A DNA stretch of 64,000 nucleotides, taken from contig CANMXP010000007.1 in assembly GCA_947501845.1 (NCBI GenBank), positions 151,381 to 215,380 on the forward strand, read 5' to 3'. Below, piece after piece: positions 14,727 to 38,805 of this stretch (its first letter is position 1; every line of letters starts with the position of its first letter). The notes below the pieces were generated by a model. The model was not told the DNA's origin. It searched no databases and worked only from the letters and a program-made list of their open reading frames with translations. The translations under genes were made by a program, and so were the position numbers. The stretch comes from an uncultured Flavobacteriaceae bacterium (GTDB taxonomy: Bacteria; Bacteroidota; Bacteroidia; Flavobacteriales; Flavobacteriaceae).

Positions 14727-15900
14727 TTATCGATTAGCAAAAGAACCATCGTTCTTTCTTAATCTTGGAATTTCAACTGGAATAAATTCATTTTTTTGAG
14801 CTAACGCTTCATTGACCTCAACACCAAGACCAGGTGTATCTAAAACTGGATATCTTGAACCGTCTAATTTGGGTTGTACTGGATAAAATTTTGGATCATT
14901 TGTAAAACCATGAGCACCAGTATTTAATTCTTCTAACCTACTAAAATTAGGGCTAGCAGCTGCCAAGTGAATGCTAGCAGCCGTACAAATTGGTCCTAGA
15001 GGATAATGTGGCATTAAATCTATATAATGAGATTCCTGCCATTGAGGCTACCTTCATTGCTTCAGTAATGCCACCTACGTTACATACATCTACACGGGCA
15101 TACTGCGTAATATTTCGTTCTATAAAAGGTAAAAACTGCCATTTACTTGAAAATTCTTCACCTATTGCAAAAGGAATATCTATCATTTTGCGTAAGGCTT
15201 CATAGGCATCTGGGTTTTCGTCACGAATAGGCTCTTCTATAAAATCTAAAGTTCCTTCTGGCATGCGTTTCATAAATGAATACGTTTCAGCTAAACTCAA
15301 CCTTGAGTGATAATCGATACTTATAGTAATTTTACTTCCAACTTCTTTTCTTAGTGCAAGCATCCATTCTGCAATGATAGTTATAGACTTCCTAGGTTCA
15401 AAACGAGAAATATCTTCTTGCTCTTCAAATTCAGCGGGAGCAAGTCTTAGCATATCCCAACCTTCACTTATCAATCTTTTAGATTGACTTATCAATTCCT
15501 CTAAAGTTGAAAAACGAATTGAAGCAAAGCACGTAACGAAATCACGTTGTTTTCCTCCTAATAATTCATAAACGGGTACTCCTAACGCCTTTCCTTTTAT
15601 ATCATAAAGAGCAATATCTATTGCAGAAATAGCTGCTGTTAAAACACGACCTCCTTCAAAGTATTGACCTCTGTACAAATCTTGCCATATAGCTCCTATT
15701 TACATAGGGTTTCTCCCTATAATTAAAGAGGCATAATGTTTAAGTGCGCCTATAACGGCGTACTCTCTGCCAGATAAACCAGAAGCTCCCCAACCGTAAA
15801 TACCAGAATCGGTTTCTACTTTAACAACTAATTGGCTTCCTGTACCTAATATTTATTGGATACGGTTTAACTGCTGTGATTTTCATTTATATGCAAATTT
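14727..15900 (-). pseudogene. Enolase-superfamily sugar-acid dehydratase (D-mannonate/D-galactonate dehydratase-like), disrupted by at least three frameshifts
   Basis: Minus-strand pieces in three frames. MKITAVKPYPINIR... then ...GSQLVVKVETDSGIYGWGASGLSGREYAVIGALKHYASLIIGRNPM* then ...LYRGQYFEGGRVLTAAISAIDIALYDIKGKALGVPVYELLGG... (ORF 14974-15678). Last, the C-terminal ORF 14727-15014. Together they reconstruct a ~390-aa MR/MLE-family enzyme. Confidence 0.7.
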
Positions 15901-15905
15901 TAGTA

Positions 15906-17201
15906 TTATCCCTTTGGAACAATACGCTCTACTTTTCCTACTAAAAATGTATATGCAAAAAAGCCTAAAAAAGCTACAGCAGCAATAAATATTAAAGCAG
16001 GGCTAAAATCCCCATCTTGTACTAAATATCCAATAACAGTTGGTACAACTATGCTGGATAGCCCCCCAATAAAGTTAAAAGCACCTCCTACTAAGCCTAA
16101 ATTTTCTTTAGGAGCTATTAAAGATACAAACACCCAAGCAATACTAGCCAATCCCATTCCAAAACCAGCAAGGGCCAAGAAGAATATCACAAAAAACGTA
16201 TCATTGGTATAATTAGCCCCAATAATACAGGTTGATAATAGCATCCCAACAAGAATTGGCAATTTTCTAGAAATTTCTGCTGAATATCCTTTTTTAATTA
16301 AAAAATCGGATGTGAAACCAGATAATAAAATACCACAAAATGCAGCTAGATAAGGTACCGATGCATAGAAACCCGATTTAACAAAGTCAAATCCTCTAAA
16401 TTCCACTAAATAAGTTGGAAACCAAGTTAAAAAAAACATGGTAATTGCCCCTAAACAAAACTGACCGATATAGATGCCCCAAAGCTTTCTATAAATAAAT
16501 GCCTGTATAAAATCTGACCATTCAAATTTTTTCTTAACCTCGTCTTTATCCTTGGCACCAATTATACCGCCTCCTTTTTCAATATATTCTAACTCAGATT
16601 CACTAACCCCTTTATGATCTCTAGGGTCTCTGTAAAATATATACCAAACCGCTGCCCAAACAATTCCTATAATTCCTGAAATTATAAATAACCCTCTCCA
16701 CCCTACAGCATCTTGAATAAGTGTTAATAAAGGTATTAAAAAAGCCAAGCCTAAAAACTGACCAGATGTGTACACTGCTATGGCCGATGCCCTTTCGTTT
16801 TCAGGAAACCATCTGCTCACCACTAAATTGTTAATAGGATAAGAAGGTGCTTCAAAAACACCTATACTAGCCCTCAGGCCTATTAAAGCTGTAAAAGAAT
16901 TTACCACCCCTTGTAACAAGGTAGCAATTGACCAAAATACTAGAAGAAATGAGTAAAGTATTCGTGATTTTATTTTGTCTGCAACAATTCCTCCAGGAAT
17001 TTGTAAACTGGCATAAAATATACCAAAAGCAGAAAATACATAGCCCATTTGAACAGTATCTATTCCTAAATCTTTTCGGAGTGCAAAAGCCGCCACAGAT
17101 ATATTGGTTCGGTCTAAATAATTTATTACAACAGTAATAAATATCATTACAAGAATATTATACCTTTTTCTGGTTTCTAATTTAATCGATGTTACACTCA
17201 T
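15906..17201 (-). CDS. MFS transporter (anion:cation symporter family, hexuronate/galactonate-type)
   Basis: 431 aa, 12 predicted TM segments. N-terminal ...NYLDRTNISVAA... motif characteristic of DgoT/ExuT-like MFS permeases. Confidence 0.75.
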   Translation of the reverse strand: MSVTSIKLETRKRYNILVMIFITVVINYLDRTNISVAAFALRKDLGIDTVQMGYVFSAFGIFYASLQIPGGIVADKIKSRILYSFLLVFWSIATLLQGVVNSFTALIGLRASIGVFEAPSYPINNLVVSRWFPENERASAIAVYTSGQFLGLAFLIPLLTLIQDAVGWRGLFIISGIIGIVWAAVWYIFYRDPRDHKGVSESELEYIEKGGGIIGAKDKDEVKKKFEWSDFIQAFIYRKLWGIYIGQFCLGAITMFFLTWFPTYLVEFRGFDFVKSGFYASVPYLAAFCGILLSGFTSDFLIKKGYSAEISRKLPILVGMLLSTCIIGANYTNDTFFVIFFLALAGFGMGLASIAWVFVSLIAPKENLGLVGGAFNFIGGLSSIVVPTVIGYLVQDGDFSPALIFIAAVAFLGFFAYTFLVGKVERIVPKG

Positions 17202-17245: not shown

Positions 17246-17819
17246 ATGAAAGTCTAAATATATAATAATAGAATCATAAATCGTCCTAGAAGCCAGTAAA
17301 GGCATATACTTGACCTGAAATTACTATAAAACACTTCTAAAACTGAGCAGCAACAAACTGAAACGAATTTTAGAAAGCTTTAAAATAAAAACGAGTAAAT
17401 GTAAGCTTATTTATTAATATTTGATATTAATTCTATCGATTAAGTAGAGATTTAACATCTCAACACATTATATATACCATCAAGGAAGATTTCTTTTTAA
17501 ATCATTAACTGCAAATTAAGAGGAACAATAGTGGCATATCAATTTTTCATTAACATATCAAATGCATGGAAAGGATACAATATTTACGAGTTCGACATAG
17601 GCTTTGATTAATATAACTATGTAAAGTGTTAAAAAACAAATAATTGTCAGTTCGATAGCGTAACGAACGAACGATGAGAAACCTCAAAATAATGAGATTC
17701 CTTCTCATTCTTCGTTCAGGAATGACAATATAAAATTTTATTTATCTGATAATCAATGATTTATAATTTGTATTATGTCGAACTCACGCAATATTAGTAA
17801 TAATTTTAATAGGTAAATG

Positions 17820-19274
17820 TTACTCAGACATTAAGCGTTTTCTAATGTCCGTCAAAGATTCATCAATGATAAGTTTCCCATCTTTAAAAACTTCTTTTAA
17901 CTCTCCTTGTTTTTCTTCTGCCCATGTCACTTGGTCTATAAGTTTATAAGTTCCGTTAGACTTTATAATTTTTAAGAGTCCTTTTGCTGACTTTTTTGTG
18001 CCATCGTCGGTAACTGGATCTTTAAAAATTTCACGCCCTTCACCATTTACCTCTCCATAAGTAGCCTTCATAGCAAAACCAAAGGTATCACGGGTATTAT
18101 ACTGATAAGTAAAAGAACCTATTCCTAAAACGACATTGGTTGAAGCAAACCCTTTCTGTTTTAGGCGTTCACAAATCTGAGTAGCTCGCTCTAAGGTTAT
18201 ACTATCTCCATAAATAGCTCCTATATGTGAGTCTAGCTCTTTATATCCTTTACCGTTTATAGCGCCTCCAAAAACATCCCAAAGCAGTTCTATAACACCT
18301 CTCTGCTCTTTCTTCGTTTTACCATTTGGATTCCCACAAATAATATCTACGGGGTCTCCACTATCGGGTCGAATAACTACTTTTCCTTCTCTATTTAAAA
18401 CGTCTTCTTTCAAGTTAGGTAAATACTCAGTTAATACCTTCCATAAATCCCAAGTATCTGAAACAATAGAAACGATACCACTTGGATAAACTTCAGTTAT
18501 TAACCTTTTAAAAGTTTCTTGTTCACCTGTGTCTGTCCCCATACACATAACGGAGTGTTCTGTAGCCGCTACTGAGCCGCCTATCAATTCGGTATCAGAA
18601 TCTGCGTTATAATAGGTTTCTAAAAAATCTATGGCTGGAATGGTATCTGTTCCTGTAAAACTCAATAAATGTCCCGTTGCACTAAGTTTGGCAGCTTCTA
18701 ATCCTGCCATACCACGCATGGAAAAATCATGCCCTTGCCAATCTACAAATTCTGGTATTGACGATGTTTCCTTTGCATATTTATCTAATATATTTCGGTA
18801 TTGCTTAGCTATGGTAGCTGAATTACATGGCAACCAAACCGTTGTAGACAATAATGTTTCAAAATAATTAGTCAACCAAAAAAATTCAGGCTTTGTATTA
18901 TACATCGTAAACATGGGCACTCTAACAGGTACCGATACGCCTTCAGGCAATGCTTTAATAAGCATAGGTAAATATCCTAAATCATGTAAATCTGAAATAT
19001 GTTGAACATCTACCTTGTTTTCTCCTAAATAGTTATTAATTCTCCTAGTATACTTTTTGCATATAACATCTTTTGGCTGATTGAAAAAATTCTCTTGAAA
19101 ATCTTTAATCATATATTTTTTAATGAAGTACTGTAGTCCAAAAAACACGACCTTGTCAACATTATCAATTCGACTCTTTCTAGGTGTCCAATTAGAATAT
19201 ACCAAGGTTGTATTTTCTGGATATTGTCTTCTGTGATCTACTTTATAACCGTCTGTAAATAATAATGGGTTCAT
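17820..19274 (-). CDS. nadV: Nicotinamide phosphoribosyltransferase family protein (NadV/NAMPT homologue; possibly a Namat-type enzyme)
   Basis: 484 aa. N-terminus MNPLLFTDGYKVDHRRQYP... matches the NAMPT signature (…TDSYK..H…QYP). Size typical of NadV. Confidence 0.8.
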   Translation of the reverse strand: MNPLLFTDGYKVDHRRQYPENTTLVYSNWTPRKSRIDNVDKVVFFGLQYFIKKYMIKDFQENFFNQPKDVICKKYTRRINNYLGENKVDVQHISDLHDLGYLPMLIKALPEGVSVPVRVPMFTMYNTKPEFFWLTNYFETLLSTTVWLPCNSATIAKQYRNILDKYAKETSSIPEFVDWQGHDFSMRGMAGLEAAKLSATGHLLSFTGTDTIPAIDFLETYYNADSDTELIGGSVAATEHSVMCMGTDTGEQETFKRLITEVYPSGIVSIVSDTWDLWKVLTEYLPNLKEDVLNREGKVVIRPDSGDPVDIICGNPNGKTKKEQRGVIELLWDVFGGAINGKGYKELDSHIGAIYGDSITLERATQICERLKQKGFASTNVVLGIGSFTYQYNTRDTFGFAMKATYGEVNGEGREIFKDPVTDDGTKKSAKGLLKIIKSNGTYKLIDQVTWAEEKQGELKEVFKDGKLIIDESLTDIRKRLMSE

Positions 19275-19332
19275 AATTTATTTGATTTAATTTGCGTAAT
19301 TATTACACAAATATAAAAAGCGTTTTTGATTC

Positions 19333-19372
19333 AACAAACTAATTTGCGTTTTTTTTACGCAAATTAGTTTAA
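19333..19372. terminator. Perfect 14-bp inverted repeat with T6 loop (aaactaatttgcgt-tttttt-acgcaaattagttt). Bidirectional terminator-like hairpin
   Basis: Read directly between the 78-aa ORF and nadV. Confidence 0.6.
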
Positions 19373-19378
19373 AATGTG

Positions 19379-19615
19379 CTAATCGTCGATTATTTGGTGA
19401 TCTTTTAAAGCTGAAATTACTTTTCTAGCATAATTTCTATCTAGTTCTTTAATATCTTCAGGAAGATCTTTGTATGGAATGAAGTAGTTTTTCCATCTTT
19501 TAGTAGTTTCTTGAGACAACTTTTCTTTTTGCATTATTTGCTTGGCCCAATTCATCCATTGTTGATGTTCTAGCTCGGCCAAAGTCTCTAATAAATCTAA
19601 TTCTTCTTTTATCAC
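19379..19615 (-). CDS. Hypothetical small protein (78 aa)
   Basis: ORF only. No recognisable motif. Confidence 0.3.
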   Translation of the reverse strand: MIKEELDLLETLAELEHQQWMNWAKQIMQKEKLSQETTKRWKNYFIPYKDLPEDIKELDRNYARKVISALKDHQIIDD

Positions 19616-19730
19616 TTATATATAATTAATATGGTTTCTCCTATGGCTATATTGTTTGGGGTATTCATTAGAAAATAACACTAAGGCTTGGTTACCCAAA
19701 CATTATAATAGTCCACAAATGGCAAGAGAG

Positions 19731-20804
19731 TTATATACTTAATTCTTTAAAAGTTTTTGATTCTGGGCTATAAGAACCATAAACTTGATCAAAATTATTT
19801 TTCAATTTGTTCCAATCAATTGAGGCATCAAATTGATCTAGACAAGTTATTACAATATGACTCTTCTTTGATGTATTATAAATTTGATCGATTTTTTTAG
19901 CATGAAATAACAAATCAAGGTCTAATTCACCTAATCTTAAATGCTTTTGAAACTCGTTATAAACACATGTCTCTTCTTCATTATTCTTTAATTTAATTTC
20001 GCTTTCATTTAACATCCAACCGTTACCATGCCTAGTTATATAAGATCTTGAAACATAAAATGTCTCTATATCTTCTATTTGAAGTTTTTTACAAATTTCA
20101 ATAGCATTTTTTGAAGTTGTATTTGCATAAGTAACATTTGGAAATATACCATGATTCATATCCAACAAAACACCTTGGCTGCCTTCAAATATAAAAGTCT
20201 CGTACTTTTTTAAAAATGAATAATCTTTAATTTTCCAATTCAGACTATTAATGCATTCTAAAAAGTAATTTACTTCACTTCGTAATTCTTCGTTATCATA
20301 TATTCCATAATAATTCGCAATGCCTTTTAATTTTTCAACAAACATTGATCTAGGAGCTAATAAATCAATTGCATATAGTTTATTGGGACCTTCATTCCTT
20401 TTCATTGTTGCACCAATTCCTTTACCGCAACTTCCATGTTTTAAATTTTTAACATTTTTACGATTGTGCCAAACATCAAAGGGCGTTGTTAATTTAGCTA
20501 AGGGGTGGATATAAAGCTCTGTGTTACCGCTTTTCTCTTCTAACTCTTTTTTTTCATTATACAAAAAAGTGGGATGTATTATACAATGTTCGCTAAAATA
20601 GGACGGTAATCCTCTTAATGCTCCACTACCAAAACTAGCATGTATATGTTTCTTGTTATTAATTAACACGGTATGAGCTGCTTGTGGGCCACCAGAGAAA
20701 CGTATAACTATAGATTTAGGATATTGACGACACAGAAAATCGGTGGTAATACCTTTGCCTTCATCACCAAACCCTAAACCTATAACAATTTTAGCTTTTT
20801 TCAT
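19731..20804 (-). CDS. Adenylosuccinate-synthetase-like protein (PurA/PurZ superfamily), C-terminally shorter than housekeeping PurA
   Basis: 357 aa. GLGFGDEGKGITTD (P-loop GxxWGDEGKGK), GGPQAAHT (cf. GGHNAGHT), FEGSQGVLLDMNHGIFPNVTYANTTS (cf. [25 protein letters not shown]). About 75 residues shorter than E. coli PurA, as phage PurZ-type enzymes are. Confidence 0.7.
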   Translation of the reverse strand: MKKAKIVIGLGFGDEGKGITTDFLCRQYPKSIVIRFSGGPQAAHTVLINNKKHIHASFGSGALRGLPSYFSEHCIIHPTFLYNEKKELEEKSGNTELYIHPLAKLTTPFDVWHNRKNVKNLKHGSCGKGIGATMKRNEGPNKLYAIDLLAPRSMFVEKLKGIANYYGIYDNEELRSEVNYFLECINSLNWKIKDYSFLKKYETFIFEGSQGVLLDMNHGIFPNVTYANTTSKNAIEICKKLQIEDIETFYVSRSYITRHGNGWMLNESEIKLKNNEEETCVYNEFQKHLRLGELDLDLLFHAKKIDQIYNTSKKSHIVITCLDQFDASIDWNKLKNNFDQVYGSYSPESKTFKELSI

Positions 20805-20807
20805 TAT

Positions 20808-21668
20808 TTATAACATCTCCATATCATCGAAGCTTGCTCCTGAAATGTCTGTTTTCACACTTTTATTAGATTCATATTTTTCACATACTAGATTTTTCAC
20901 AACTTCGGGTATGGTTTTATAATCGCCTACAGAAATACAGTTATTTCCCAATAACTCTTTCCAACCCTTTTCTGCTTCAACAGCTCTAGGGGAATGATTA
21001 ACGCTTACATGAAATACTTCATATCTCTTTTTAGCCTCTTCCAGCAATTCTATTTCAGAATAAGTCTGTTGCCCCGAACCCATAATTTCTTTGATAGCAG
21101 AAGCGGGCAATGATTTTAAATTAGGTTCATCCCCTATAGTAATTAATACCCCTTTTTGTTTTCTTTTCTCGAAGGCATCCGTTCTTGTATGGAATGCTGC
21201 AAAGTACCAAGCTAGCAAGTAACTTTCTCCTGCGTTTCCTCCGCCTCCAGATTCTATATAAGTTCGGGTAAGCCACATATCCAATTCTTCATCTCCAGAT
21301 TCAAACTGACCTACCTGTAAAGGATAAGAGTCACATTCATGGTCACCAATTCCTAAAAAAAGCAGTGCAGCATCTGGAACACCATCCTGGATAATTCCGC
21401 CCATTAATTTTGGTAAACCCTCTTTAATTAAATCATGCGGTATATGTCCCATACTTCCCGTTACATCTAAAGCTAAAATAACAGGAAACGAATTTGGATG
21501 TATTTCGGAATCCCTTGCTTCTCTAAATTCAATATTTTCGGGATTCATTGAATTATGAGCTCTTCGTTCTTTATTTTGTTGAAAAATATCATTTACAGAT
21601 TTGCTAGCATAACCCGCTTTTTTAGCTCTTAAAAGCCTGTCTCCTATATTATATTTTGTTCCTCCCAT
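20808..21668 (-). CDS. von Willebrand factor type A (vWA) domain protein
   Basis: MIDAS motif VILALDVTGSMGHIP (DxTGSM). 286 aa. Confidence 0.6.
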   Translation of the reverse strand: MGGTKYNIGDRLLRAKKAGYASKSVNDIFQQNKERRAHNSMNPENIEFREARDSEIHPNSFPVILALDVTGSMGHIPHDLIKEGLPKLMGGIIQDGVPDAALLFLGIGDHECDSYPLQVGQFESGDEELDMWLTRTYIESGGGGNAGESYLLAWYFAAFHTRTDAFEKRKQKGVLITIGDEPNLKSLPASAIKEIMGSGQQTYSEIELLEEAKKRYEVFHVSVNHSPRAVEAEKGWKELLGNNCISVGDYKTIPEVVKNLVCEKYESNKSVKTDISGASFDDMEML

Positions 21669-21670
21669 AA

Positions 21671-22006
21671 TTAATATTTTTTTCCAAATAAGTATTCGTA
21701 TCTATTTTTTGTTATCTCGAACTGAATTTTTAAGTTTCTAATTTTTAAAGATATTTCAATATCTTTTTCAACAAAACTATCAGGATTAAAGTCTGCAAAA
21801 GTTAAACTGTTTTTATCTAAAGGACTTATATCAATAGCACTTTCTTGCTCTCTGCTTAAACGCTTAATTTTTAGCTCTATGTCTTCAATTCTTCTTCTAT
21901 AAATTAATTCAGAATCTTCAGCTATAACTTTAGCTCTGTCTTCTCTAATCTGATCGTTGTTTCTTCTTAAAGCATCAACAAATCGTGGTTTTAAATCGTC
22001 ACTCAT
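21671..22006 (-). CDS. Hypothetical coiled-coil protein (111 aa), translationally coupled to the vWA gene
   Basis: ORF. Heptad-like charged sequence. 3-bp spacing to the downstream gene. Confidence 0.35.
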   Translation of the reverse strand: MSDDLKPRFVDALRRNNDQIREDRAKVIAEDSELIYRRRIEDIELKIKRLSREQESAIDISPLDKNSLTFADFNPDSFVEKDIEISLKIRNLKIQFEITKNRYEYLFGKKY

Positions 22007-22236
22007 TTTTGTTTGTTTTTAGGTTCTGTATAATCAACTGTTCTTATTTTCTTTTAAGGAACAAGGTTTAAAATCTCTTCTTTTAATTAGTGCTACAAAA
22101 CAAAGCTAAATATTATGCTTTTACTACCCTATTTTCCGTGAAAATAGTAGAAACCTTTGCTTATCTGTACTATTTTTTAATAAAATATTGATTTTCGTTT
22201 TTTATCTTGTTACGTGATTTTAATCTCTTTTCAGCG

Positions 22237-23205
22237 TTAAATCTTATACTTTTTTGATAATTCATCACACAACTTGGTAATATCTTCTTTTCGTGACAAA
22301 ACGGCTATCCAATTACTTGGAATAACATCATACCCATATAACAAACCTGCTAAACCTCCAGAAATTGCGGCCGTAGTGTCTGTATCTTTTCCTAAGTTGA
22401 CCGATTTTAAAACCGTTTCTTCATAGCTTTTTGAAGTTAGGATACACCATAAGCTGGCCTCTAAACTGTCTAAAACATATCCACTAGAATTAATTTCATT
22501 TTCTTCAAGTTCGTATAAAACTTGTATGTCATAATTCTCTATTTGATTTTCTAATATTTTGTGAAATTTGTCCATTTCTTTTTGGGAACAAATAGGATTA
22601 TTGTTCAAAAAATAGTTTACCTCAATCTGCATCTCTTTATAGGCTTCCCATTTTGTTTTATTCTCCAAAAGCTTAAGAGCATACTCTAAATAAATAAAAC
22701 ATGCTAAAACAGATCTAATATGGGCATGGGTAATTGATGAAACATCTTTAATTATATCAAACCGTTTTTCTATTTTAAGCTCTTTAATATAAAATACGAG
22801 TGGTAAAATTCGCATTAAAGATCCATTACCATTGTCCATTTCTGAATAGCCTCCCGCAAGTATTGGCTTTGTTCCTGTTGCTATAGAATGAATCGCTTGA
22901 TTAGTAGAAATACCAATATCAAAAACTTTCCCGTGTGGTGTCCAAATCTCCTCATTTCTCCATTGAACAAACTTTTTACCTATATCGTTAATATCGTATT
23001 GCTTGCATAAACTTTCTGCAAGACAAAATGTAAGCGAACTATCGTCACTCCAAGTACCTAAAGGCTGTTCATGGGTTCCATATCCTAACATGTCCTTAAC
23101 TGGAAATCGTTTTAAATAATCTCTATCTTTAAATTCAACGGGGACTCCCAAAGCATCTCCTACTGCCAAGCCAAACAATGCTGCATGTATTTTATTCTGC
23201 TTCAT
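22237..23205 (-). CDS. ADP-ribosylglycohydrolase family protein (DraG/ARH-like)
   Basis: N-terminus KIHAALFGLAVGDALGVPVEF... (ARH signature GxAxGDALG). 322 aa. Confidence 0.8.
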   Translation of the reverse strand: MKQNKIHAALFGLAVGDALGVPVEFKDRDYLKRFPVKDMLGYGTHEQPLGTWSDDSSLTFCLAESLCKQYDINDIGKKFVQWRNEEIWTPHGKVFDIGISTNQAIHSIATGTKPILAGGYSEMDNGNGSLMRILPLVFYIKELKIEKRFDIIKDVSSITHAHIRSVLACFIYLEYALKLLENKTKWEAYKEMQIEVNYFLNNNPICSQKEMDKFHKILENQIENYDIQVLYELEENEINSSGYVLDSLEASLWCILTSKSYEETVLKSVNLGKDTDTTAAISGGLAGLLYGYDVIPSNWIAVLSRKEDITKLCDELSKKYKI

Positions 23206-23214
23206 TCTTACTAT

Positions 23215-23685
23215 TTAATTAAAATCATAAACAACCGTTTTGATACCATTATTAACTAAATTATTCAATAAAACAGGCTCTATTTTCTCCCATTTTCCTC
23301 CAGCTAAACCACAACCAATTCTTGGCATATGTACAGAAGCTTTTAAATCTTTTGCTTTTTTAAAAACCTTTTGCATAGCCTCTTCAACAGCCACATACCG
23401 AATTGGTGGATGACCTTGTTCATCTTTTCTAATCTTATGCTGCCCTATTACATTAGCAACCCATAAATCATTTTCAACTTGTATAAACTGTACGTTTCCT
23501 AATTCAAAATCATTTTGTGATTTATACCATGCCCGATAAGAAGCCTCAGGTAATGCCCACCTTTTTGAAATTGCTATTACAAATCCTTTTCCCCATCCCC
23601 CAATATCGTTGCAGATATGGACTATGATTTTATTTCCTTCTGAACTGGGTTGCGTTGCATCACCATTTAAATATTGAATTTCCAT
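23215..23685 (-). CDS. Macro-domain protein of the TARG1/OARD1 (Macro_2) type
   Basis: 156 aa. C-terminal [21 protein letters not shown]...IKTVVYDF aligns with human TARG1 ...[20 protein letters not shown]...IKITVYTL. Confidence 0.7.
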   Translation of the reverse strand: [156 protein letters not shown]

Positions 23686-23689
23686 ACCT

Positions 23690-24556
23690 TTAATTTAGGG
23701 TTTGAGAATTTAAAACATCTTTGATACAATTGCCTATTGGAATCCGATATACTGGTATTTTTATATTGTATAGTTTTATAAAACGTTTTATTTCACTATC
23801 CACATTTTTTTGGTCATAGCGAGATGAGAAATGTCCTAAAATAAGTTTATTTACTTTTATTTCTGAAACCATCTGCATAACTTCTTCGAGCGAACTATGT
23901 TTATTTTTATGATTACCCTTTTCTAATTCTTTTTTGCTTAAAAAGGTAGCTTCGTGTATTAAAACTTCACAATTATCAAACTTTGAATAATCAAAGATTG
24001 GCGTATCTCCAGAATAAATCAATACATTTTTATGTTGTTTTTCATTTATAAAACCTTCGCCTTTTTCCTTTTTTAAAGCAATTAATTCTTCAGCCTTTAA
24101 CTTGTGAAATTCTTTTTTCAGTTTATTTTTAGTTTCTACAACTTTATAAGATAAACTTTTGAGCTGACCATAAATATCAATATGTCTATTCTCAAACCCT
24201 TGAACACTTAAGTTTGATTTAATGTTTATAATTTCATTATCCATTAATGGTTTCCAAAGCGTACCAGAAGTATGCGGATCAAACTTAGTTGTAAATTCAG
24301 CTAAAAATTTGAATGAATTTGCATCTTTTGGATAATGAATAGCAGGTTTTCCATGTGAAAACAACTGATTATATTGCAATAACCCTCCCAAATGATCTCT
24401 ATCTGCATGAGATATAAAAACATGTTTTATTTTGCCTGTTTTTCCTAGCAAATTAGCTGTAAGCCCATCACCTGCATCAAATAGCAAACCTAGCTCTTCT
24501 ATAAAATACCACGTCGCAAATAAAGCCGTTGAATATCCATGTATAGTTAATTTCAT
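23690..24556 (-). CDS. MBL-fold metallo-hydrolase (RNase Z/ElaC-like fold)
   Basis: 288 aa. Motif HVFISHADRDHLGGL (HxHxDH-type, with HxDxDH variant). Confidence 0.6.
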   Translation of the reverse strand: MKLTIHGYSTALFATWYFIEELGLLFDAGDGLTANLLGKTGKIKHVFISHADRDHLGGLLQYNQLFSHGKPAIHYPKDANSFKFLAEFTTKFDPHTSGTLWKPLMDNEIINIKSNLSVQGFENRHIDIYGQLKSLSYKVVETKNKLKKEFHKLKAEELIALKKEKGEGFINEKQHKNVLIYSGDTPIFDYSKFDNCEVLIHEATFLSKKELEKGNHKNKHSSLEEVMQMVSEIKVNKLILGHFSSRYDQKNVDSEIKRFIKLYNIKIPVYRIPIGNCIKDVLNSQTLN

Positions 24557-24558
24557 CT

Positions 24559-25065
24559 TTAGTTTTCCTTTAATAATTCTTTATAAATCCTATAATTCTC
24601 ATCATCATAACACACAAAAATCACCTCTTCTATTATAGGGTTTTGTTTTACTGTTTTTATAGCAATTAATGCGGCTTTTTCTTTTGGAAACTTATAAATT
24701 CCTGTACTTATATTTGGAAAAGCAATACTCTTGACATTATTATCTTTTGCTAATTGTAAACTATTTTTGTAGCAATTTTCTAATAATTGTGCTTCATTAT
24801 TATTTCCTCCATTCCATACTGGACCTACTGTATGGGTTACATACTTAGAAGGTAATAACCCGCCAGTAGTAATCACTGCCTCGCCCGTTTTGCAACCACC
24901 TTGTTTATCCCTAATCTTTATACATGCTTCTAAGATTGTTTTACCTCCTGCTTTATGAATAGCCCCATCAACACCTCCTCCACCTAAAAGCGATGTGTTA
25001 GCTGCATTTACTATAATTTCTACAGCTACTTTTGTAATATTTCCTTGTATGCAACTAATTGTCAT
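24559..25065 (-). CDS. Macro-domain protein (MacroD/YmdB-like O-acetyl-ADP-ribose deacetylase / ADP-ribose-1''-phosphatase type)
   Basis: 168 aa. [23 protein letters not shown] ... GEAVITTGG ... [11 protein letters not shown] are the canonical macro motifs. Confidence 0.85.
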
Positions 25066-25901
25066 TATTCTAGGTTTAGTGCAATTTGCTTGAATTGTTC
25101 AGTACTTTCAATACTCTTAAAAGAGTCTGTACTATAAATTTTATCAAAATGCTTATTAAGTTCCGTTAATCCTTTACTAAAAATACCATGACTAACAGCT
25201 AAATATAATTTACCCGCATTCTTCTTTTTTAACTCTTTAGCCAGCCCCATAAAGGTACCTCCGCCATCACAGATGTCGTCCACTATTAAACACGATTTCC
25301 CTTTCAAATCTTCGGCATATACTTTAAAATCTGATATCTGTCCAGTTTTCACATCTCTTGATTTTGAGCATTCTATAACTTCAATACCGCCTAATGCACT
25401 GGTTAATTTATATATCTTCTTTAAAGCACCGCCATCTGGTGAAATAAGTATAATATCTTCATCTATATCTTGAATTGCTTCTTTAATAAAGTTATGATTT
25501 GAAATCACTTTACAATTATTTAATAATGCTGGAACTACTTCTGAATGCGGGTCATAAACCGTTACGCTATTCAAATTCAAAGCATTTAATAGCTGTGCAT
25601 ATACTTTAACCGACAATGATTCGCCTTTTACCATAACCCTATCTTGCCTTGCTGCTGGGAAATAAGGTATAAATACATCTATTGATTTAATTCCCAATCT
25701 TTGTAATGCATCGATAGCCAAAAGCAACAAACCAAAATCGTTAAATGACTGTACCCTATGCGTTACAGTTACATTTTTGTTTTGATCTATTGGTGTTAAA
25801 ATTTTAATGTGCGGTTCTCCCCCCGAAAAAGTAAAACTTTCAAAATCGATACTTTCTTTTTCAATAAAGGGTCTAAATTTAGGGTCTAAATTTAAAATCA
25901 T
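25065..25901 (-). CDS. Ribose-phosphate pyrophosphokinase family protein (short Prs-like; could be a genuine PRPP synthetase or an ADP-ribose pyrophosphokinase 'Adps'-type homologue)
   Basis: 278 aa. [10 protein letters not shown] (Prs PYFxYARQDR) and [13 protein letters not shown] (PRPP-binding loop). Lacks ~30 N-terminal residues of housekeeping Prs. Confidence 0.78.
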
Positions 25902-25963
25902 ATTGCGTTTATTTTACGCAAATGTATAAAGAGAAAATGAGATAACAAAATTTTGTGTAATAT

Positions 25964-26656
25964 TTACACAAACTTTATTTCAAAATGGAAATCGTTAACG
26001 GTAAGTTGCTTGAATTTCTTTTTATTAAATTTAAAAAGTTTGGCAGGGCGGCCACTTCCAATTTTTTCAATTTTATTGGTTTCTTCAATGATGCCAAAGC
26101 TTAGCGTTTTCTTTCTAAAATTTCTTCGGTCTATTTCTTTTTCTAAAATAGTCATATACAAATTTTCTAAATCGGAAAACGGAAACTCATCATTTAGCAA
26201 ATCAAAGCCAATAGGCTCATAGCTCAATTTTGCTTTTAATCGTTGATGCGCCATATCTAAAATCTGTTGATGATCAAATGCTAATTTTGGTAATTCATTT
26301 AGGTGATACCATTGTACATCTGCTGCATCTGTATCTGCTTTAATATTAAAATGATTAGGTTTTACCAATCCAAAATAACTTACTGAAAGCACTCTATTTC
26401 TAGGATCTCTTTTAGGAGTTCCAAATGTGTAGAGTTGCTCCAGGTAATCTATAGTTATTCCTGTTTCTTCACTAAGTTCCCTTTCTACAGCCTCTTCAAG
26501 CGATTCATTATTAAGAACCAAACCTCCAGGTAAGGCCCACTTCCCTTTAAAAGGTTCAATTCCGCGTTTAATTAATAATACTGACAGATTGTTTTTAGAT
26601 TCGTAACCAAATACAACTGCATCTACAGAGACTTTTATATCTTGATTCACTTTCAT
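25964..26656 (-). CDS. NUDIX hydrolase (ADP-ribose pyrophosphatase-like) with a ~80-aa C-terminal extension
   Basis: Nudix box GGLVLNNESLEEAVERELSEETGI (GX5EX7REUXEEXGU). 230 aa. Confidence 0.8.
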   Translation of the reverse strand: MKVNQDIKVSVDAVVFGYESKNNLSVLLIKRGIEPFKGKWALPGGLVLNNESLEEAVERELSEETGITIDYLEQLYTFGTPKRDPRNRVLSVSYFGLVKPNHFNIKADTDAADVQWYHLNELPKLAFDHQQILDMAHQRLKAKLSYEPIGFDLLNDEFPFSDLENLYMTILEKEIDRRNFRKKTLSFGIIEETNKIEKIGSGRPAKLFKFNKKKFKQLTVNDFHFEIKFV

Positions 26657-26940
26657 TTATGCGTATTTAGAACACAAAGATACAGTCTTTAATCTTTCTC
26701 CTCAAAGAATATTATACCTTGCCTTATTATAACCGTATCCGTAAAATACTTTTTCTACAAATTAATAAATTGAAAAATATTGTAACATTTGTAATTATTA
26801 AGATACATATAATTAGATTGGCAACTATAGAAAAGCAAATAATATAATAAGAATGTACCGATTGAAATATAAAAAAAATTACCTAATATTGTTTGTAAGT
26901 AATTGCTCTTAAAAAATTTACCACCAAAAACTCTAACCTA

Positions 26941-27690
26941 TTGAATACTATCATTGATATTGCTTTTTCATCTGTAAATATTACACTAAGCATACTCGTT
27001 ATTTTACTTATAGTGTATTGGCTTTTCAATATGATTTCTGGAATTGATTTTGATCTAGACGTTGATGTAGATATTGATATTGATGCAGACGTAGATGTAG
27101 ACCTCGATACCAGTCTTGAAAGTGGAAGCATAACCGATCTTGCCAACGCAGAAATTAACAAAGAAGATATTGTTAGAAATCCAAGAAAAAAACTAGAATG
27201 GTGGCAAATTGTATTAATCTACTTCAATTTTGTTGGATTACCGTTTATGTTCACATTTACATGTTGGATTTTTATTTGGTGGTTATGCACCGTAATTTCA
27301 ACAAGTATTACTGAATCTTATAATACTAGTTTTGGATACACGGTCCTTTTAGCTGGTATATTACCATCTTTAATTTTAACCAAACTTTTTACAACACCTT
27401 TTAAAGGTTTTTTTAAGAACTTGAATCAAGACGGAGATTTACCTACAGATTTAACTAGCAAAAAAGGTGTTATGTTATCAAACATATCTGGAGAAAAAAT
27501 GGGATCTGCAGAAGTAGTAGCAGATGGCAATCCCATGTCTATTTATGCCAAATCATTAGATGGCCAAACCATTAAATACAAACAAGATATTTTAATCGTA
27601 AAACAATCTGATGATAAAAATTTTTATTGGGTACTACCCTTCGAAGATGACAATGATAAAATACTTAATATTAATGACATCGAATTCTAA
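26941..27690 (+). CDS. NfeD/YqiJ-like membrane protein (TM segments + acidic DxD repeat + C-terminal OB-fold)
   Basis: 249 aa. TM helices. DFDLDVDVDIDIDADVDVDLD acidic repeat. C-terminal beta-rich NfeD-like segment. Immediately upstream of a flotillin gene, as in yqiJ-yqiK pairs. Confidence 0.6.
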   Translation: MNTIIDIAFSSVNITLSILVILLIVYWLFNMISGIDFDLDVDVDIDIDADVDVDLDTSLESGSITDLANAEINKEDIVRNPRKKLEWWQIVLIYFNFVGLPFMFTFTCWIFIWWLCTVISTSITESYNTSFGYTVLLAGILPSLILTKLFTTPFKGFFKNLNQDGDLPTDLTSKKGVMLSNISGEKMGSAEVVADGNPMSIYAKSLDGQTIKYKQDILIVKQSDDKNFYWVLPFEDDNDKILNINDIEF

Positions 27691-27739
27691 AACATATCAT
27701 ATAACTTAAATCAATTAAAAACAAAACCAAATAACAACT

Positions 27740-29806
27740 ATGGAACACATCACGCAGTTTATTGGAATAGGAGTTGGACTTATTCTGTTCTTAATCATAA
27801 TTTATTTTGCAATTATTGCACTATTCTATAAAAAAGTCCCGCAAGGAGAAGCCTTAGTAAGGACAGGATTTAAGGGTACTAAAGTCGCTACAGATAAAGG
27901 GCTGTACGTAGTACCTGTATTTCATAAAGTAGAAATTATGGATATTTCGGTAAAGAAAATCCAAATTGAGCGTATTGGAGACAACGGATTATTATGTAAG
28001 GATAATATGCGCGCCGATATTAAAGTGGCATTTTTCGTAAGAGTAAACAATGAGGTAGATTTCATAAAAAAAGTAGCACAAACAGTAGGTTGCGAAAGAG
28101 CTTCAGATATTTCTACATTAGAAGAACTTTTTGAAGCCAAATTCTCTGAAGCTTTAAAAACCGTTGGGAAAAAGTTTCAATTTGTAGAGCTTTACGAAGC
28201 ACGTAGAGAATTTCGTGATGAAATTGTTGATATTATTGGTACAGATCTTAATGGTTATACCTTAGAAGATTGCGCCATAGATTACTTAGAGCAAACACCT
28301 GTTCAATTTTTAAAGTCTGATAACATTCTAGATGCAGAGGGGATTAAAAAAATCACAGAACTCACTGCTGAACAAAACATGAAAGCTAATCTTATTAAAC
28401 GCGATGAAGAAAAAGTAATTCGCAAGCAAGATGTTGAAGCGCGTGAAGCCATTTTAGAGTTGGATAAACAATTAGCAGAAAAAGAAGAACAACAAAGAAG
28501 AGAGATCTCTAACATAAAAGCCCGTGAAGAAGCAGAGATCTTAAAAGTAGCTCAAGAAGAACGTTTAAAATCTGAAAGTGCCAGAATTTCTACTGAAGAA
28601 AAAGTAAAAGTGGCTGAAGAAAATATGGAGCGTCAAATTATAGTTGCAGCAAAAAACAAGCAACGTACAGATGCTGTAGAATCTGAAAGAGTTGAAAAAG
28701 ACAGAATGCTAGAAGCTACAGAAAGAGAACGTATCGTTACTTTAGCTCAAATTGAAAAAGAAAAAGTAGTAGAAGTTGAAAAGAAAAGTATTCAAGATGT
28801 GATTCGAGATAGAGTGATGCTTGAAAAAGGCGTGGTAGAAGAGCAAGAAAACATGAAAGACATCGAAGCATTTAAGACTGCCGACAGAGAAAAGCAAGTA
28901 AAGATTACAATTGCAGAAGCTAACGCACAAGAATCATTAATTAAAACCATAAAAGCTGCGGAAGCCGAAAAAGAAGCATCTAAACAAAAAGCAGAAGAAA
29001 TTAATATTGAAGCGGAAGCGAAGAAACAAGCGAGCCAAAAAGAAGCGGAAGCTAGAAAAACACTAGCCGAAGCCAAAGCTAAAGAAGAAGCAACTATTGG
29101 TATGTCTGAAGCGCAAGTAATGCATGCAAAAGCAGATGCCAACGAACGTCAAGGTCTGGTAGAAGCAACTATTATAGAAGAAAAAGCTAAAGCAGAAGCT
29201 GCTGGAATTTTAGCTAAAGCAGAAGCTGTGAAAGAAGAAGGTATAGCTCAAGCTGAAGTCATTAAGGAGCAAGCCTTAGCAGAAGCTACTGGTATAGAAG
29301 AAAAAGCTAACGCTATGAAAAAATTAGATGGTGTTGGTAAAGAACATGAAGAATTTAAATTACGTTTAGACAAAGAATTACAAGTAGATCTAGCCGAAAT
29401 TAATATTCAAAAAGAAATTGCAGATGCGCAAGCTGAAGTTATTGGTGAAGCATTAAAAGCAGCAAATATTGATATTGTTGGTGGTGAGACAATGTTCTTC
29501 GATCAAATTATTGGACAAATCACAAAATCTAAAGGTGTAGACCGTCTGGTAAATCATTCAGATAATATTACCCAAGTAAAAGATGCTATTCTAGGAAGCG
29601 ATGATGTTAAAGGCAATCTATTAGATAAAATCAAAGAGTTTGCAACCAAATATGGTATCTCTTCAGAAGACATTAAAAACTTAACAGTTGCTAATTTGTT
29701 AATGGATTTAAAATCTAAAACATCAAATACCAGCGAAGAAACCCTATTTAATAACCTAGCGAACCTTGCCAAGGGCTTAGGTTTATCTGATAAAAAGTTA
29801 GGGTAA
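27740..29806 (+). CDS. Flotillin-like SPFH/band-7 protein (YqiK/FloA-like) with long Ala/Glu/Lys-rich coiled-coil
   Basis: 688 aa. N-terminal TM anchor. SPFH core (…GEALVRTGFKGTKV…YVVPVFHKVEIMDISVKKIQI…). Long EA-repeat region. Confidence 0.8.
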   Translation: MEHITQFIGIGVGLILFLIIIYFAIIALFYKKVPQGEALVRTGFKGTKVATDKGLYVVPVFHKVEIMDISVKKIQIERIGDNGLLCKDNMRADIKVAFFVRVNNEVDFIKKVAQTVGCERASDISTLEELFEAKFSEALKTVGKKFQFVELYEARREFRDEIVDIIGTDLNGYTLEDCAIDYLEQTPVQFLKSDNILDAEGIKKITELTAEQNMKANLIKRDEEKVIRKQDVEAREAILELDKQLAEKEEQQRREISNIKAREEAEILKVAQEERLKSESARISTEEKVKVAEENMERQIIVAAKNKQRTDAVESERVEKDRMLEATERERIVTLAQIEKEKVVEVEKKSIQDVIRDRVMLEKGVVEEQENMKDIEAFKTADREKQVKITIAEANAQESLIKTIKAAEAEKEASKQKAEEINIEAEAKKQASQKEAEARKTLAEAKAKEEATIGMSEAQVMHAKADANERQGLVEATIIEEKAKAEAAGILAKAEAVKEEGIAQAEVIKEQALAEATGIEEKANAMKKLDGVGKEHEEFKLRLDKELQVDLAEINIQKEIADAQAEVIGEALKAANIDIVGGETMFFDQIIGQITKSKGVDRLVNHSDNITQVKDAILGSDDVKGNLLDKIKEFATKYGISSEDIKNLTVANLLMDLKSKTSNTSEETLFNNLANLAKGLGLSDKKLG

Positions 29807-29816
29807 CATAATCTCA

Positions 29817-29851
29817 TTCACTTGCTTGTCAGTCTCTGGCAAGCAAGTGAA
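29817..29851. terminator. 12-bp inverted repeat hairpin (ttcacttgcttg…caagcaagtgaa) just after the flotillin stop
   Basis: Read directly. Confidence 0.45.
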
Positions 29852-29867
29852 TTAAACCTCTTAATTA

Positions 29868-30308
29868 GTGTCCAAATTAAAAATCATTTTCATTGTAATC
29901 ATTTCAGCAATGGTATTCTGTTTAACTGATAATATATTCTCAAGAGAAGAATATCTAAAGGGAATTATTATTAAAAAAGGGTACAGAAACAAAATGATTA
30001 TTACAGCGACAGGAAATAATACCAGTAGAGGACACAGTGTTGTTAATACTCCAACTTATGATCCTAATGGGTATATAATATTTATTAAAGATAAAAATGG
30101 TGATCAAATAGTGATAAGGAGTAACCGGGATACTTATACCAACGCTTACAAAGGTGATTCTATAAAATACCGTTTATCAAAAGGCTTTTTTTCTAGAAAA
30201 ATATGGAAATCTTCTATAGTTGAAGTCATGCCAAATTTTGAAAACAGAAAACAATTTTTAAATAAAAAACTATCACCACTAGAAAAATTTCTTAAAAACA
30301 ACAGATGA
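29868..30308 (+). CDS. Hypothetical small membrane-anchored protein (146 aa)
   Basis: ORF with N-terminal hydrophobic segment. Confidence 0.35.
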   Translation: MSKLKIIFIVIISAMVFCLTDNIFSREEYLKGIIIKKGYRNKMIITATGNNTSRGHSVVNTPTYDPNGYIIFIKDKNGDQIVIRSNRDTYTNAYKGDSIKYRLSKGFFSRKIWKSSIVEVMPNFENRKQFLNKKLSPLEKFLKNNR

Positions 30309-30326
30309 TTTTAACTAAAAAAGTAC

Positions 30327-37103: not shown

Positions 37104-37139
37104 AATTTTACTAATTTATACTTCAAAAGTAAAATCATG

Positions 37140-37160
37140 GTACGCAGTTATTCTGCGTAG
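37140..37160. promoter_or_regulatory. Palindrome gtacgcag-ttatt-ctgcgtag upstream of the NTase operon. Divergent relative of the ...ttttgcgtagt... element seen at 40301, 44511, 49358
   Basis: Read directly. Confidence 0.35.
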
Positions 37161-37241
37161 TGAATATTATTTGTTATATTACCTTTAAATACGCTCCTTA
37201 ATAAAACAAAAATGCGTCAACCTAAATCAACGCATTTCCTA

Positions 37242-38740: not shown

Positions 38741-38805
38741 AAAATGGATAAAAGTCCACATCCTACATTATGAGTGTAGTGCTCTACCTACTGAGCTATG
38801 TAACC
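38741..38805 (-). ncRNA. tRNA-like element: intact tRNA-Met(CAU)-type 5' two-thirds (acceptor 5' strand, D-arm, anticodon arm CUACA-CUCAUAA-UGUAG) but degenerate T-arm and no matching acceptor 3' strand
   Basis: Reverse complement reads GGTTACATAGCTCAGTAGGTAGAGCACTACACTCATAATGTAGGATGTGGAC... Confidence 0.35.

Follow-up and report, generated by a model that had tools for sequence, protein, structure and literature searches.

A probable NAD+ reconstitution module under a predicted ADP-ribose-sensing repressor on a flavobacterial chromosome

Gene content and operators of the cluster

We analysed a stretch of 64,000 nucleotides from an uncultured Flavobacteriaceae bacterium (contig CANMXP010000007.1 of GenBank assembly GCA_947501845.1; hereafter the window), in which a cluster of 11 co-oriented open reading frames (ORFs) occupies the minus strand from 26656 to 17820. 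The cluster begins with a gene for a Nudix-related regulator of the NrtR family (nrtR), followed by one for a short protein of the Prs family (adps-like), and ends with one for a protein of the NAMPT family (namat-like). We consider it probable that it is a chromosomal module of the NARP1 type, in which the enzymes Adps and Namat rebuild nicotinamide adenine dinucleotide (NAD+) from ADP-ribose (ADPR), and that an ADPR-sensing repressor controls it. All seven domain families of the original prediction, which had been made from the letters alone, were recovered with Pfam and NCBIfam, and enzymes predicted to release ADPR do accompany the adps-like/namat-like pair, as it had proposed. Its count of nine genes is replaced by the 11 found by ORF calling, and its description did not include the ORFs for a 111-amino-acid (aa) protein (21671-22006), a 286-aa protein with a vWA fold (20808-21668), a 357-aa PurA-like protein (19731-20804) and a 78-aa RyR-domain protein (19379-19615), the first three of which we refer to as the trio.

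Read in gene order, nrtR (25964-26656, 230 aa) and the adps-like gene (25065-25901, 278 aa) are followed by genes for a macro-domain protein of the MacroD/YmdB type (Macro1, 24559-25065, 168 aa), a phosphodiesterase of the RNase Z family with a metallo-β-lactamase (MBL) fold (23690-24556, 288 aa), a second macro-domain protein (Macro2, 23215-23685, 156 aa) and an ADP-ribosylglycohydrolase related to DraG and Tri1 (ARH, 22237-23205, 322 aa), then by the trio, the RyR-domain ORF and the namat-like gene (17820-19274, 484 aa). The intergenic distances, in the same order, are 62, -1, 2, 4, 9, 230, 2, 3, 115 and 104 nt, with tight spacing in the adps-macro-MBL-macro-ARH series (-1, 2, 4 and 9 nt) and in the trio (2 and 3 nt). 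A uniform spacing of 0-5 bp and two or three operons had been predicted, but gaps of 62, 230, 115 and 104 nt are also present, which therefore suggest about four transcription units. The G+C content of the cluster (0.31-0.33) is that of the rest of the window, its nearest relatives come from Flavivirga and other marine Flavobacteriaceae, and a sibling assembly (GCA_947494505.1) has an identical gene order. No regulatory RNA was found in the cluster with Rfam, and a defence-system scan with PADLOC returned nothing but a weak DarG match for Macro2.

The nrtR product combines an N-terminal Nudix-like domain (PF00293, 77.4 bits) with a C-terminal winged helix (PF21906, NrtR_WHD, 79.5 bits with a cutoff of 27). 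The assignment is one at family level, without an equivalog, because the NCBIfam model NF050029 scores 148.8 bits with an equivalog cutoff of 400. This protein had been predicted to be a NUDIX enzyme performing the ADPR-splitting step; its architecture and the conserved operators described below point primarily to a regulator instead. The Nudix signature (GX5EX7REUXEEXGU) is intact in the window protein and in 10 of 14 related genome loci. In the NrtR family an intact signature goes with ADPR pyrophosphatase activity, as in NuhA, and the window protein may have residual activity of this kind; with its signature intact, it would perhaps be sensor and enzyme at once.

Comparison of 15 clusters, namely the window and the 14 related loci, revealed that the palindrome TTGYGT-N7-ACRCAA is kept in their intergenic DNA. 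It has the GT-N7-AC core of NrtR operators, which have been described as palindromes of about 21 bp (PMC2330246). Four perfect 19-bp palindromes were found in the 64-kb window, all of them intergenic in the cluster, with 0.017 expected from shuffled sequences. Together with a copy carrying one mismatch, the operators number five. The imperfect one (26659-26677) abuts the nrtR start codon, a position kept in all related loci. Two perfect ones precede the adps-like gene, of which the distal (25953-25971) overlaps the nrtR stop codon and is conserved in the loci, and the proximal (25903-25921) begins within TACATTTG and stops 1 nt short of the ATG. The remaining two precede the namat-like gene, with the distal at 19344-19362 and the proximal, which starts inside TATATTTG, at 19292-19310. 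The same operator positions recur in about 20 related loci.

Each promoter-proximal box starts within a TAnnTTTG element (TACATTTG, TATATTTG and TATCTTTG), which we take to be the -7 box of Bacteroidetes promoters, and because the box begins in this element, binding of NrtR should occlude the promoter. A sigma-70 promoter scan, using a model unsuited to Bacteroidota, performed no better than on shuffled sequences, and one of the two 'terminators' called alongside it is an NrtR box. Release of NrtR from DNA by ADPR has been shown for the Synechocystis and Shewanella proteins only, and by analogy with these we infer that ADPR would also be the inducer of the window protein. A further NrtR-like palindrome with one mismatch lies at 17773-17791, 29 nt past the namat-like stop codon and 572 nt upstream of a gene for a transporter of the major facilitator superfamily (15906-17201), and is kept in the sibling contig (L024 in our numbering of the related loci).

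The Adps-like and Namat-like proteins

In BLASTP comparisons, the Adps-like protein is 44% identical to the Adps of phage ICP1, with 160 bits over 201 aligned residues (39% identity overall), and matches the Adps of phage Bennett with 127 bits, as against 27% identity and 80.5 bits for E. coli Prs and 85 bits for the best canonical Prs in the PDB. Profile scores agree, with 281 bits for phrog_619 versus 147 bits for TIGR01251. Its 278 residues do not include the C-terminal extension of canonical Prs, and its PP loop reads DDICDG, like that of ICP1 Adps (DDICDGAASF), versus DDMIDTGGTL in E. coli Prs. The structures and activity of ICP1 Adps have been published together with K185 and the residues that contact ADPR and ATP (PMC13586617), and 9 of 11 of these contact and catalytic residues are identical in the window protein (F18, R87, H121, D161, K185, D212, D213, D216 and F221). 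These comparisons place the Prs-like protein among verified phage Adps and apart from E. coli Prs, and its predicted reaction would be the conversion of ADPR and ATP to ADPR pyrophosphate (ADPR-PP) and AMP, that is, it is a predicted ADP-ribose diphosphokinase.

The best solved relatives of the NAMPT-like protein are the structures 9W5X and 9W5W of SpβL1 Namat (630 bits, about 68% identity), with human NAMPT scoring about 250 bits and Xanthomonas NAMPT 228 bits. A helix motif, GSXΦXΦXΦTRD with aromatic X, is diagnostic of Namat, and mutagenesis has shown that R40, F392 and Y396 of the clamp and F189, D215 and R306 of the core matter for this enzyme (PMC12774641). The SCH motif of the window protein, GSFTYQYNTRD, is the same as that of SpβL1 Namat, whereas human NAMPT has GSGGGLLQKLTRD, and the equivalents of all six residues are conserved; the SCL stacking residue R40 of SpβL1 corresponds to R35, and F189, D215 and R306 fall in alignment blocks identical with 9W5X. 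Phage relatives of the Namat-like protein form two identity bands, of 36-62% and 28-35%, which, using identity alone for the assignment, we read as NARP1-type and canonical NadV-type phages, respectively. The protein is a predicted nicotinamide ADP-ribose transferase, which would convert ADPR-PP and nicotinamide to NAD+ and pyrophosphate. Both placements are based on diagnostic residues together with scores from pairwise and profile comparisons. At this level, the suggestion in the original prediction that the pair corresponds to Adps and Namat holds, as the former is closer to Adps than to Prs and the latter has all published Namat determinants. Moreover, the two genes share a strand and an NrtR regulon, and they are linked in 14 of 14 related genome loci.

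The same genes could instead serve ordinary nicotinamide salvage, which is how nrtR-prs-nadV operons were read in 2008 (PMC2330246). NrtR or a different Nudix enzyme would then split ADPR to AMP and ribose-5-phosphate, a dedicated Prs paralogue would convert the latter to phosphoribosyl pyrophosphate (PRPP), NadV would produce nicotinamide mononucleotide (NMN), and a housekeeping adenylyltransferase encoded elsewhere would complete the route to NAD+. This canonical sequence of steps, also laid out in the original prediction, is disfavoured, as there is neither an NMN adenylyltransferase nor a second prs in the window; tblastn found no NadD-, NadM- or NadR-like sequence within these 64 kb. Salvage also fails to account for a complete adenine 'selectivity clamp' as in the crystallised Namat, for the Adps-type PP loop, and for the similarity of the Prs-like protein to verified Adps, which is double that to E. 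coli Prs; in addition, placing an essential PRPP synthase under ADPR-dependent repression would, in our reasoning, make little sense. With these points set beside those that follow, we regard salvage as improbable.

Several observations weigh against NARP1, and the first of them speak at the same time for salvage. Both proteins also pass curated hidden Markov model cutoffs of NCBIfam, the Adps-like one that for ribose-phosphate diphosphokinase (146.7 versus 113) and the Namat-like one that for NadV-type phosphoribosyltransferase (620 versus 405); these models make no distinction between Adps and Prs or between Namat and NadV. NMN-forming activity persists in Namat enzymes in vitro (PMC12774641), and salvage is the activity that nrtR-prs-nadV operons have been described with. 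The intact Nudix box of NrtR, a correlate of ADPR pyrophosphatase activity in NuhA, might allow it to hydrolyse ADPR, either rivalling Adps or feeding the ribose-5-phosphate route. Two contact residues of ICP1 Adps are changed in the window protein (F92 to Met and F223 to Gly), and the adps-like and namat-like genes have their own promoters and a distance of 5.8 kb between them, in contrast to the compact phage operons. Finally, the trio of the window is without an NrtR box of its own, and a Chryseobacterium locus consists of NrtR and cargo without adps or namat, so the cargo can work without NARP1.

A constant frame with changing cargo

The order nrtR-adps-cargo-namat is constant in the 14 Flavobacteriaceae genome loci, while the genes in between differ even among close relatives, so that nrtR, adps and namat are the only invariant genes. 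The frame was found in Flavivirga, Psychroserpens, Winogradskyella, Aquimarina, Flavobacterium johnsoniae and F. columnare, the latter two having the same design with extra cargo that includes a Schlafen-like ATPase, and about 20 loci of Flavobacteriia keep it in all. The F. johnsoniae locus (L021) lies at around 3.50 Mb of CP140160.1. In T. jejuense, where the locus starts within the cargo, the layout is seen from Tpt1 through namat. Since the frame recurs in the 14 and in further loci and the operators far exceed expectation (4 versus 0.017), the arrangement is non-random.

Cargo families, assigned with Pfam, were counted over the 15 clusters. The most frequent are a calcineurin-like phosphoesterase (11/15) and Tpt1/KptA (10/15), followed by ARH and MacroD (8/15 each) and DUF4291 (7/15). 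NADAR, a nucleoside deoxyribosyltransferase-like family, a 140-aa family without a Pfam match, the second macro type and a 2-oxoglutarate (2OG)-Fe oxygenase each occur in four clusters, the trio in three, and microbial PARG, SIR2-TPR and SLOG in one each. The smallest cluster is nrtR-adps-ARH-namat. The cargo slot of other loci also holds genes of NAD+-consuming or conflict types, namely a 637-aa SIR2_2-TPR gene, short SIR2 genes beside macro genes and a Schlafen/AlbA_2-HATPase gene (L009 10848-12761; L023 2033-2845; L030 13714-14400; L032 7923-9368), and because of these SIR2- and Schlafen-type genes the adps-namat interval is not purely one of hydrolases. The Chryseobacterium locus (L030, Chryseobacterium herbae JAOAMU010000005.1) is headed by NrtR, carries 14 ADPR-related cargo genes and ends in a gene for a 574-aa protein without a Pfam match.

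Another reading is that the cluster is a host system that mainly reverses ADP-ribosylation by the ADP-ribosyltransferases of phages or competitors, of the predicted ARG-centred type regulated by Nudix or WYL proteins, with NAD+ rebuilding as a secondary clean-up function. An NrtR-type regulator together with ARH, macro and vWA proteins and variable parts fits the published template (PMC9503650), the best named relative of the ARH is the immunity hydrolase Tri1 of a type VI secretion system, cargo turnover among close relatives is typical of conflict systems, and Chryseobacterium retains NrtR and cargo in the absence of adps and namat. Nevertheless, the invariant genes are nrtR, adps and namat and not the ARH, which is found in 8 of the 15 clusters; the minimal locus adds an ARH to these three genes and others do without it, and it is the adps and namat promoters that carry the operators. 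We therefore hold it to be rather unlikely, if a serious contender, that ADP-ribosylation reversal is the main function.

An origin of the cluster as a phage-derived or mobile anti-defence island, such as a prophage remnant in the chromosome, was also considered and is very improbable. Adps, Namat, Macro2, ARH, vWA and PurA-like proteins have strong PHROG matches, the cargo is mosaic, and flanking genes differ between close relatives (L002 versus the window). However, the cluster is not bordered by any integrase, transposase or phage structural gene, its G+C of 0.31-0.33 follows that of its surroundings, and the frame and operators are conserved across several genera with a regulator of host type; most bacterial NARP1 in published surveys, too, is located outside mobile elements. 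A prophage origin as such was rejected on the lack of integrase and structural genes and of any compositional shift.

Among the individual cargo proteins of the window, Macro1 matches PF01661 with 166 bits and NF001664, a model of O-acetyl-ADP-ribose deacetylase, with 225 bits (cutoff 200), so that it is predicted to be an O-acetyl-ADPR deacetylase or a mono-ADP-ribosyl hydrolase. Its relatives appear in 12 phage records only, and with this and the lack of similarity to gp178 of Vibrio phage Bennett it was rejected as an equivalent of Adpp. Macro2 had been predicted to be of the TARG1 type, but its matches are the BT1257, SCO6735 and ALC1-type structures (PDB 2fg1, 2afc and 5e3b, about 200-209 bits), those to DarG, TARG1 and Poa1p being weak (E 1e-5 for 6lfu, a Poa1p-type ADPR-1''-phosphate phosphatase). 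It matches phrog_335, annotated 'phosphatase', and aligns from end to end with Bennett gp178 in BLASTP (E 1e-10, 25% identity). Because the gene for gp178 lies between the Bennett adps and namat, Macro2 is a candidate for an Adpp-like ADPR-1''-phosphate phosphatase. The ARH scores 244 bits with PF03747, and 174 and 117 bits with the Tri1 and DraG models, both below equivalog cutoffs.

The best solved match of the MBL protein is the T. maritima tRNase Z (1ww1; 133 bits, full length), while its score for the RNase Z model TIGR02650 is 128.6 with 507 required. Its motif II is HADRDH, versus HGHVDH in the T. maritima enzyme, so that Asp replaces the second His of HxHxDH, with the fold and the other motifs kept. 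For an identical gene a faint Apyc1 family match is on record, and a homologue with 56% identity is also cargo in the F. columnare cluster. Our guess is that its substrate could be a cyclic phosphodiester such as Appr>p.

The 78-aa ORF falls just short of the gathering score of PF02026 (26.8 versus 27.4 bits, E 6e-6); an identical protein, from a called gene in GCA_947494505.1, is on record with PF02026, and the gene recurs in two other nrtR-adps clusters. Residues H17, W20 and D59 are invariant in 16 homologues and share the spacing (+3, +42) of H75, W78 and D117 of RyDEP, to which they were matched by spacing and not by alignment, and the equivalent of RyDEP H100 is Lys. RyDEP linearises 2'/3'-cyclic ADPR (cADPR) to ADPR for NARP1, and most of its tested homologues only bind cADPR isomers (bioRxiv 10.64898/2026.05.28.727677). 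By analogy, the RyR-domain protein is a better candidate for acting on 2'/3'-cADPR than the MBL enzyme, for which the opening of cyclic ADPR-type products had been proposed; it is possible that it is a sponge, an enzyme or neither. A RyDEP gene next to NARP1 was not found in Mycobacterium phage Jobypre. Distant RyR-domain homologues (P0130-P0136) have N-terminal hydrophobic segments ending in Cys, as in lipoproteins, and some members of the family may therefore be exported, which would fit poorly with a role in cytosolic cADPR.

NAD+ recycling in the service of RNA repair is a further possibility for the cluster, in which Tpt1/KptA, using up NAD+ as it takes 2'-phosphates off RNA, would yield ADPR-1'',2''-cyclic phosphate and nicotinamide, and a phosphodiesterase and a macro-domain phosphatase would then supply ADPR to Adps and Namat. 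The frequency of Tpt1 and of the calcineurin-like phosphoesterase in the 15 clusters agrees with this, as does the RNase Z-like phosphodiesterase of the window, and an island carrying two genes each for RtcB and RlaP, one each for a PrfH-like and an AlkB-like protein, and an array of 16 tRNAs lies 9-30 kb away. Yet no Tpt1 was found in the window, neither in its cluster nor in the rest of the 64 kb, the presence of RNA-repair genes beside the cluster is limited to the two closest relatives, and turnover by Tpt1 would, as we reason, hardly threaten the NAD+ pool; this possibility thus seems improbable too.

The island itself (35296-49271) has the content of an RNA-repair or ribotoxin-response neighbourhood. 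It comprises two RlaP nucleotidyltransferase genes (35296-37103), an SPFH/Band7 gene (37242-38342), an AlkB-like 2OG oxygenase gene (40356-40868), the 16 tRNA genes (41500-43194), an RtcB gene (45787-47178) followed by a gene for a GGQ release factor-like, PrfH-like protein (45092-45787), and a second RtcB gene (47889-49271). Two tRNA-Leu genes of 75 nt in the array (41866-42019) are without the usual long variable arm, and two short tRNA-like matches of 61-63 nt that barely exceed the Rfam threshold are located about 3 kb from it in an ORF-poor region of higher G+C (38745-38876). Between the cluster and this island, on the plus strand and divergent from nrtR (26941-35249), are genes for a 249-aa membrane protein, a 688-aa flotillin-like coiled-coil protein without a Pfam match, a 146-aa protein and a 1640-aa DUF3686/DUF7902/AAA_5 ATPase, a block for which PADLOC gave no match. 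A functional link of the cluster to these genes was rejected, as they flank it only in the two closest relatives (L003 and L024). On the other side of the cluster, two overlapping minus-strand ORFs (14727-15678) both match the C-terminal region of the enolase superfamily (MR_MLE); the pair looks like a frameshifted or split gene, and it is divided likewise in the sibling contig L024.

The trio forms a distinct unit of cargo. Its 111-aa protein has no family match in Pfam, NCBIfam or PHROG, and its gene always lies directly upstream of the vWA gene in Flavobacteriia, with 73-100% identity in eight loci. The vWA protein, with a MIDAS-like DVTGS motif, matches phrog_2971 and has 5264 homologues, with at least 70% identity across genera of Flavobacteriia. 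Sequence searches of the PDB found nothing for it; an AlphaFold2 model (pLDDT 60, pTM 0.66) gave Foldseek matches only to vWA and integrin I domains and, being of low confidence, supports the fold class and no detail. The PurA-like gene comes next, and its product matches PF00709 (150.6 bits), phrog_1211 and E. coli PurA (77 bits), with all NCBIfam purA and purZ scores far below cutoffs. It keeps the P-loop GDEGKG, the catalytic His and the FEGxQG and NTT (IMP-site) motifs. The aspartate-binding loop (GATTGRRRRTGW in E. coli) is replaced by EFQKHL-RLG in all PurA-like members, including those of phages, and a C-terminal insert of about 60 residues in PurA is missing from the flavobacterial proteins.

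Besides the window (19731-22006), the loci that bear on the trio or on its vWA-PurA-like core are L017, L018, L019, L021, L023, L030 and L031. Pairs of NrtR boxes lie directly upstream of it in T. jejuense, in Chryseobacterium and in Cellulophaga, where the trio stands alone, and for this reason we place it in the ADPR-responsive regulon. In three unrelated phage lineages, represented by Vibrio phage phiKT1024, Rhizobium phage RHph_Y65 and Mycobacterium phage QBert, the vWA and PurA-like genes likewise adjoin each other, and in RHph_Y65 the pair is close to NAD salvage genes. No paper on a PurA-like/vWA module was found in the literature searched. We tentatively suggest that the trio might be a new module linked to ADPR and NAD+, a member of the regulon whose core is exchanged with phages and which would carry out a GTP- or ATP-driven amination or ligation at purine C6, or an analogous reaction, with a nucleophile other than aspartate. 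If so, it would restore adenine nucleotides, ADPR or NAD+ from deaminated or altered products and thus provide an extra branch of NAD+ input, the phages exchanging its vWA-PurA-like core would be jumbo or large phages of Vibrio, Rhizobium and Mycobacterium, and the adps-namat interval would be a catalogue of NARP1 accessory activities, with DUF4291, the 140-aa family, the 2OG oxygenase, SLOG and the RNase Z-like protein among them.

Proposed working of the module and related systems

For the NARP1 reading, the gene content, the family assignments at the level of residues, the places and conservation of the operators and the turnover of cargo among genomes are observed; we infer the enzymatic activities, the inducer and the physiological trigger by analogy with characterised systems, as follows. 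At rest, NrtR would occupy the five operators and repress nrtR itself, the adps operon and namat. Cleavage of NAD+ to ADPR and nicotinamide, whether by NADase effectors or toxins, by the reversal of ADP-ribosylation, or by sirtuin or Tpt1 reactions, would provide ADPR that binds the Nudix domain of NrtR and lifts repression. The Adps-like enzyme would pyrophosphorylate ADPR with ATP to ADPR-PP, and the Namat-like enzyme would couple this with nicotinamide, yielding NAD+. The intervening cargo genes may widen the input, with the MacroD-type protein, the Adpp-like macro protein and the ARH freeing or trimming ADPR from O-acetyl-ADPR, ADPR-1''-phosphate and ADP-ribosylated macromolecules, while the RyR-domain protein may bind or linearise 2'/3'-cADPR and the RNase Z-like MBL protein may open a cyclic phosphodiester. 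As the consumption of ADPR would restore repression, we propose that the unit is a self-limiting homeostat. Possible triggers are the NADases of the cell's own abortive-infection systems, NADase or ADP-ribosyltransferase toxins of competitors, and RNA repair.

With the NARP1 of phages SpβL1, ICP1 and Bas63, the cluster shares both enzymes, with a Namat about 68% identical that has the same SCH motif and clamp and an Adps-like protein in which the substrate-contact and catalytic residues of ICP1 are conserved. The phage versions are compact, unregulated early operons, whereas the pair of the window is chromosomal, belongs to Bacteroidota, encloses 5.8 kb of cargo and has its own promoters and a predicted ADPR-responsive repressor. 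In the nrtR-prs-nadV operons of Shewanella oneidensis, Acinetobacter ADP1 and Cytophaga hutchinsonii (PMC2330246), the same three families occur in the same order, with palindromic operators of the 21-bp type that have a GT-N7-AC core and with ADPR as the anti-repressor of Shewanella NrtR. Those operons were read as PRPP synthase and NadV, while the residues of the window proteins point to Adps and Namat; in addition, the clusters described here hold as many as a dozen accessory genes between the two, and a separate pair of operators serves namat.

A macro-domain gene between adps and namat is also found in NARP1-AP (Adps-Adpp-Namat) of Vibrio phage Gary (bioRxiv 10.64898/2026.01.28.702374), and Macro2 aligns end to end with the middle gene product of the equivalent Bennett operon; unlike that system, the window also encodes a macro domain of the MacroD type, which few phages carry, and the identity to the Bennett protein, itself an assumed Adpp orthologue, is only 25%. 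Similarly, the small RyR/R12 gene beside namat, with its invariant spacing of His, Trp and Asp, recalls RyDEP, the RyR-domain glycosidase of mycobacteriophage DyoEdafos that feeds NARP1, but its product has 78 aa, scores just under the Pfam gathering score and has Lys at the equivalent of H100. The ARG-centred anti-ADP-ribosylation systems (PMC9503650) resemble the cluster in having a Nudix-HTH repressor, ARH, macro or NADAR proteins, phosphoesterases, vWA proteins and a variable periphery, yet they are built on an ARG hydrolase and a phosphatase without Adps or Namat, while the core of window-type clusters is the NAD+ rebuilding pair.

Chromosomal NARP1 in bacteria is already published (bioRxiv 10.1101/2024.02.11.579819; PMC11724313) and has been assayed for pfAdps and pfNamat of Paenibacillus foliorum, a pair that produces NAD+ from ADPR and nicotinamide and counters a Sir2 NADase (PMC12774641). 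The window resembles this case in holding a bacterial copy outside a prophage and differs in phylum, as well as in its NrtR control and hypervariable cargo, which are undescribed in the literature searched. Accessory genes of phage NARP1 are likewise published, both macro-domain (bioRxiv 10.64898/2026.01.28.702374) and RyR-domain ones (10.64898/2026.05.28.727677), and we found no paper in the literature searched that links NrtR with NARP1. Within that literature, the new elements are the control of an Adps/Namat pair through NrtR operators, the hypervariable cargo across Flavobacteriia and the presence of a vWA/PurA-like module in the regulon.

NAD+ depletion is among the commonest anti-phage strategies of bacteria, and NARP1 is the phage answer to it; the reason why bacteria themselves keep chromosomal NARP1 is an open question in the literature, to which this locus gives a testable answer for one phylum. 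A pathway wired to an ADPR sensor should switch on only after NAD+ has been cleaved, and the adps-namat interval would act like a swap-shop of ADPR-processing genes. Since Adpp and RyDEP were found as neighbours of phage NARP1 and both have counterparts here, the remaining cargo, above all the trio, provides candidates for new activities. Flavobacterium johnsoniae is genetically tractable and carries the same cluster, so these predictions would be directly testable in it.

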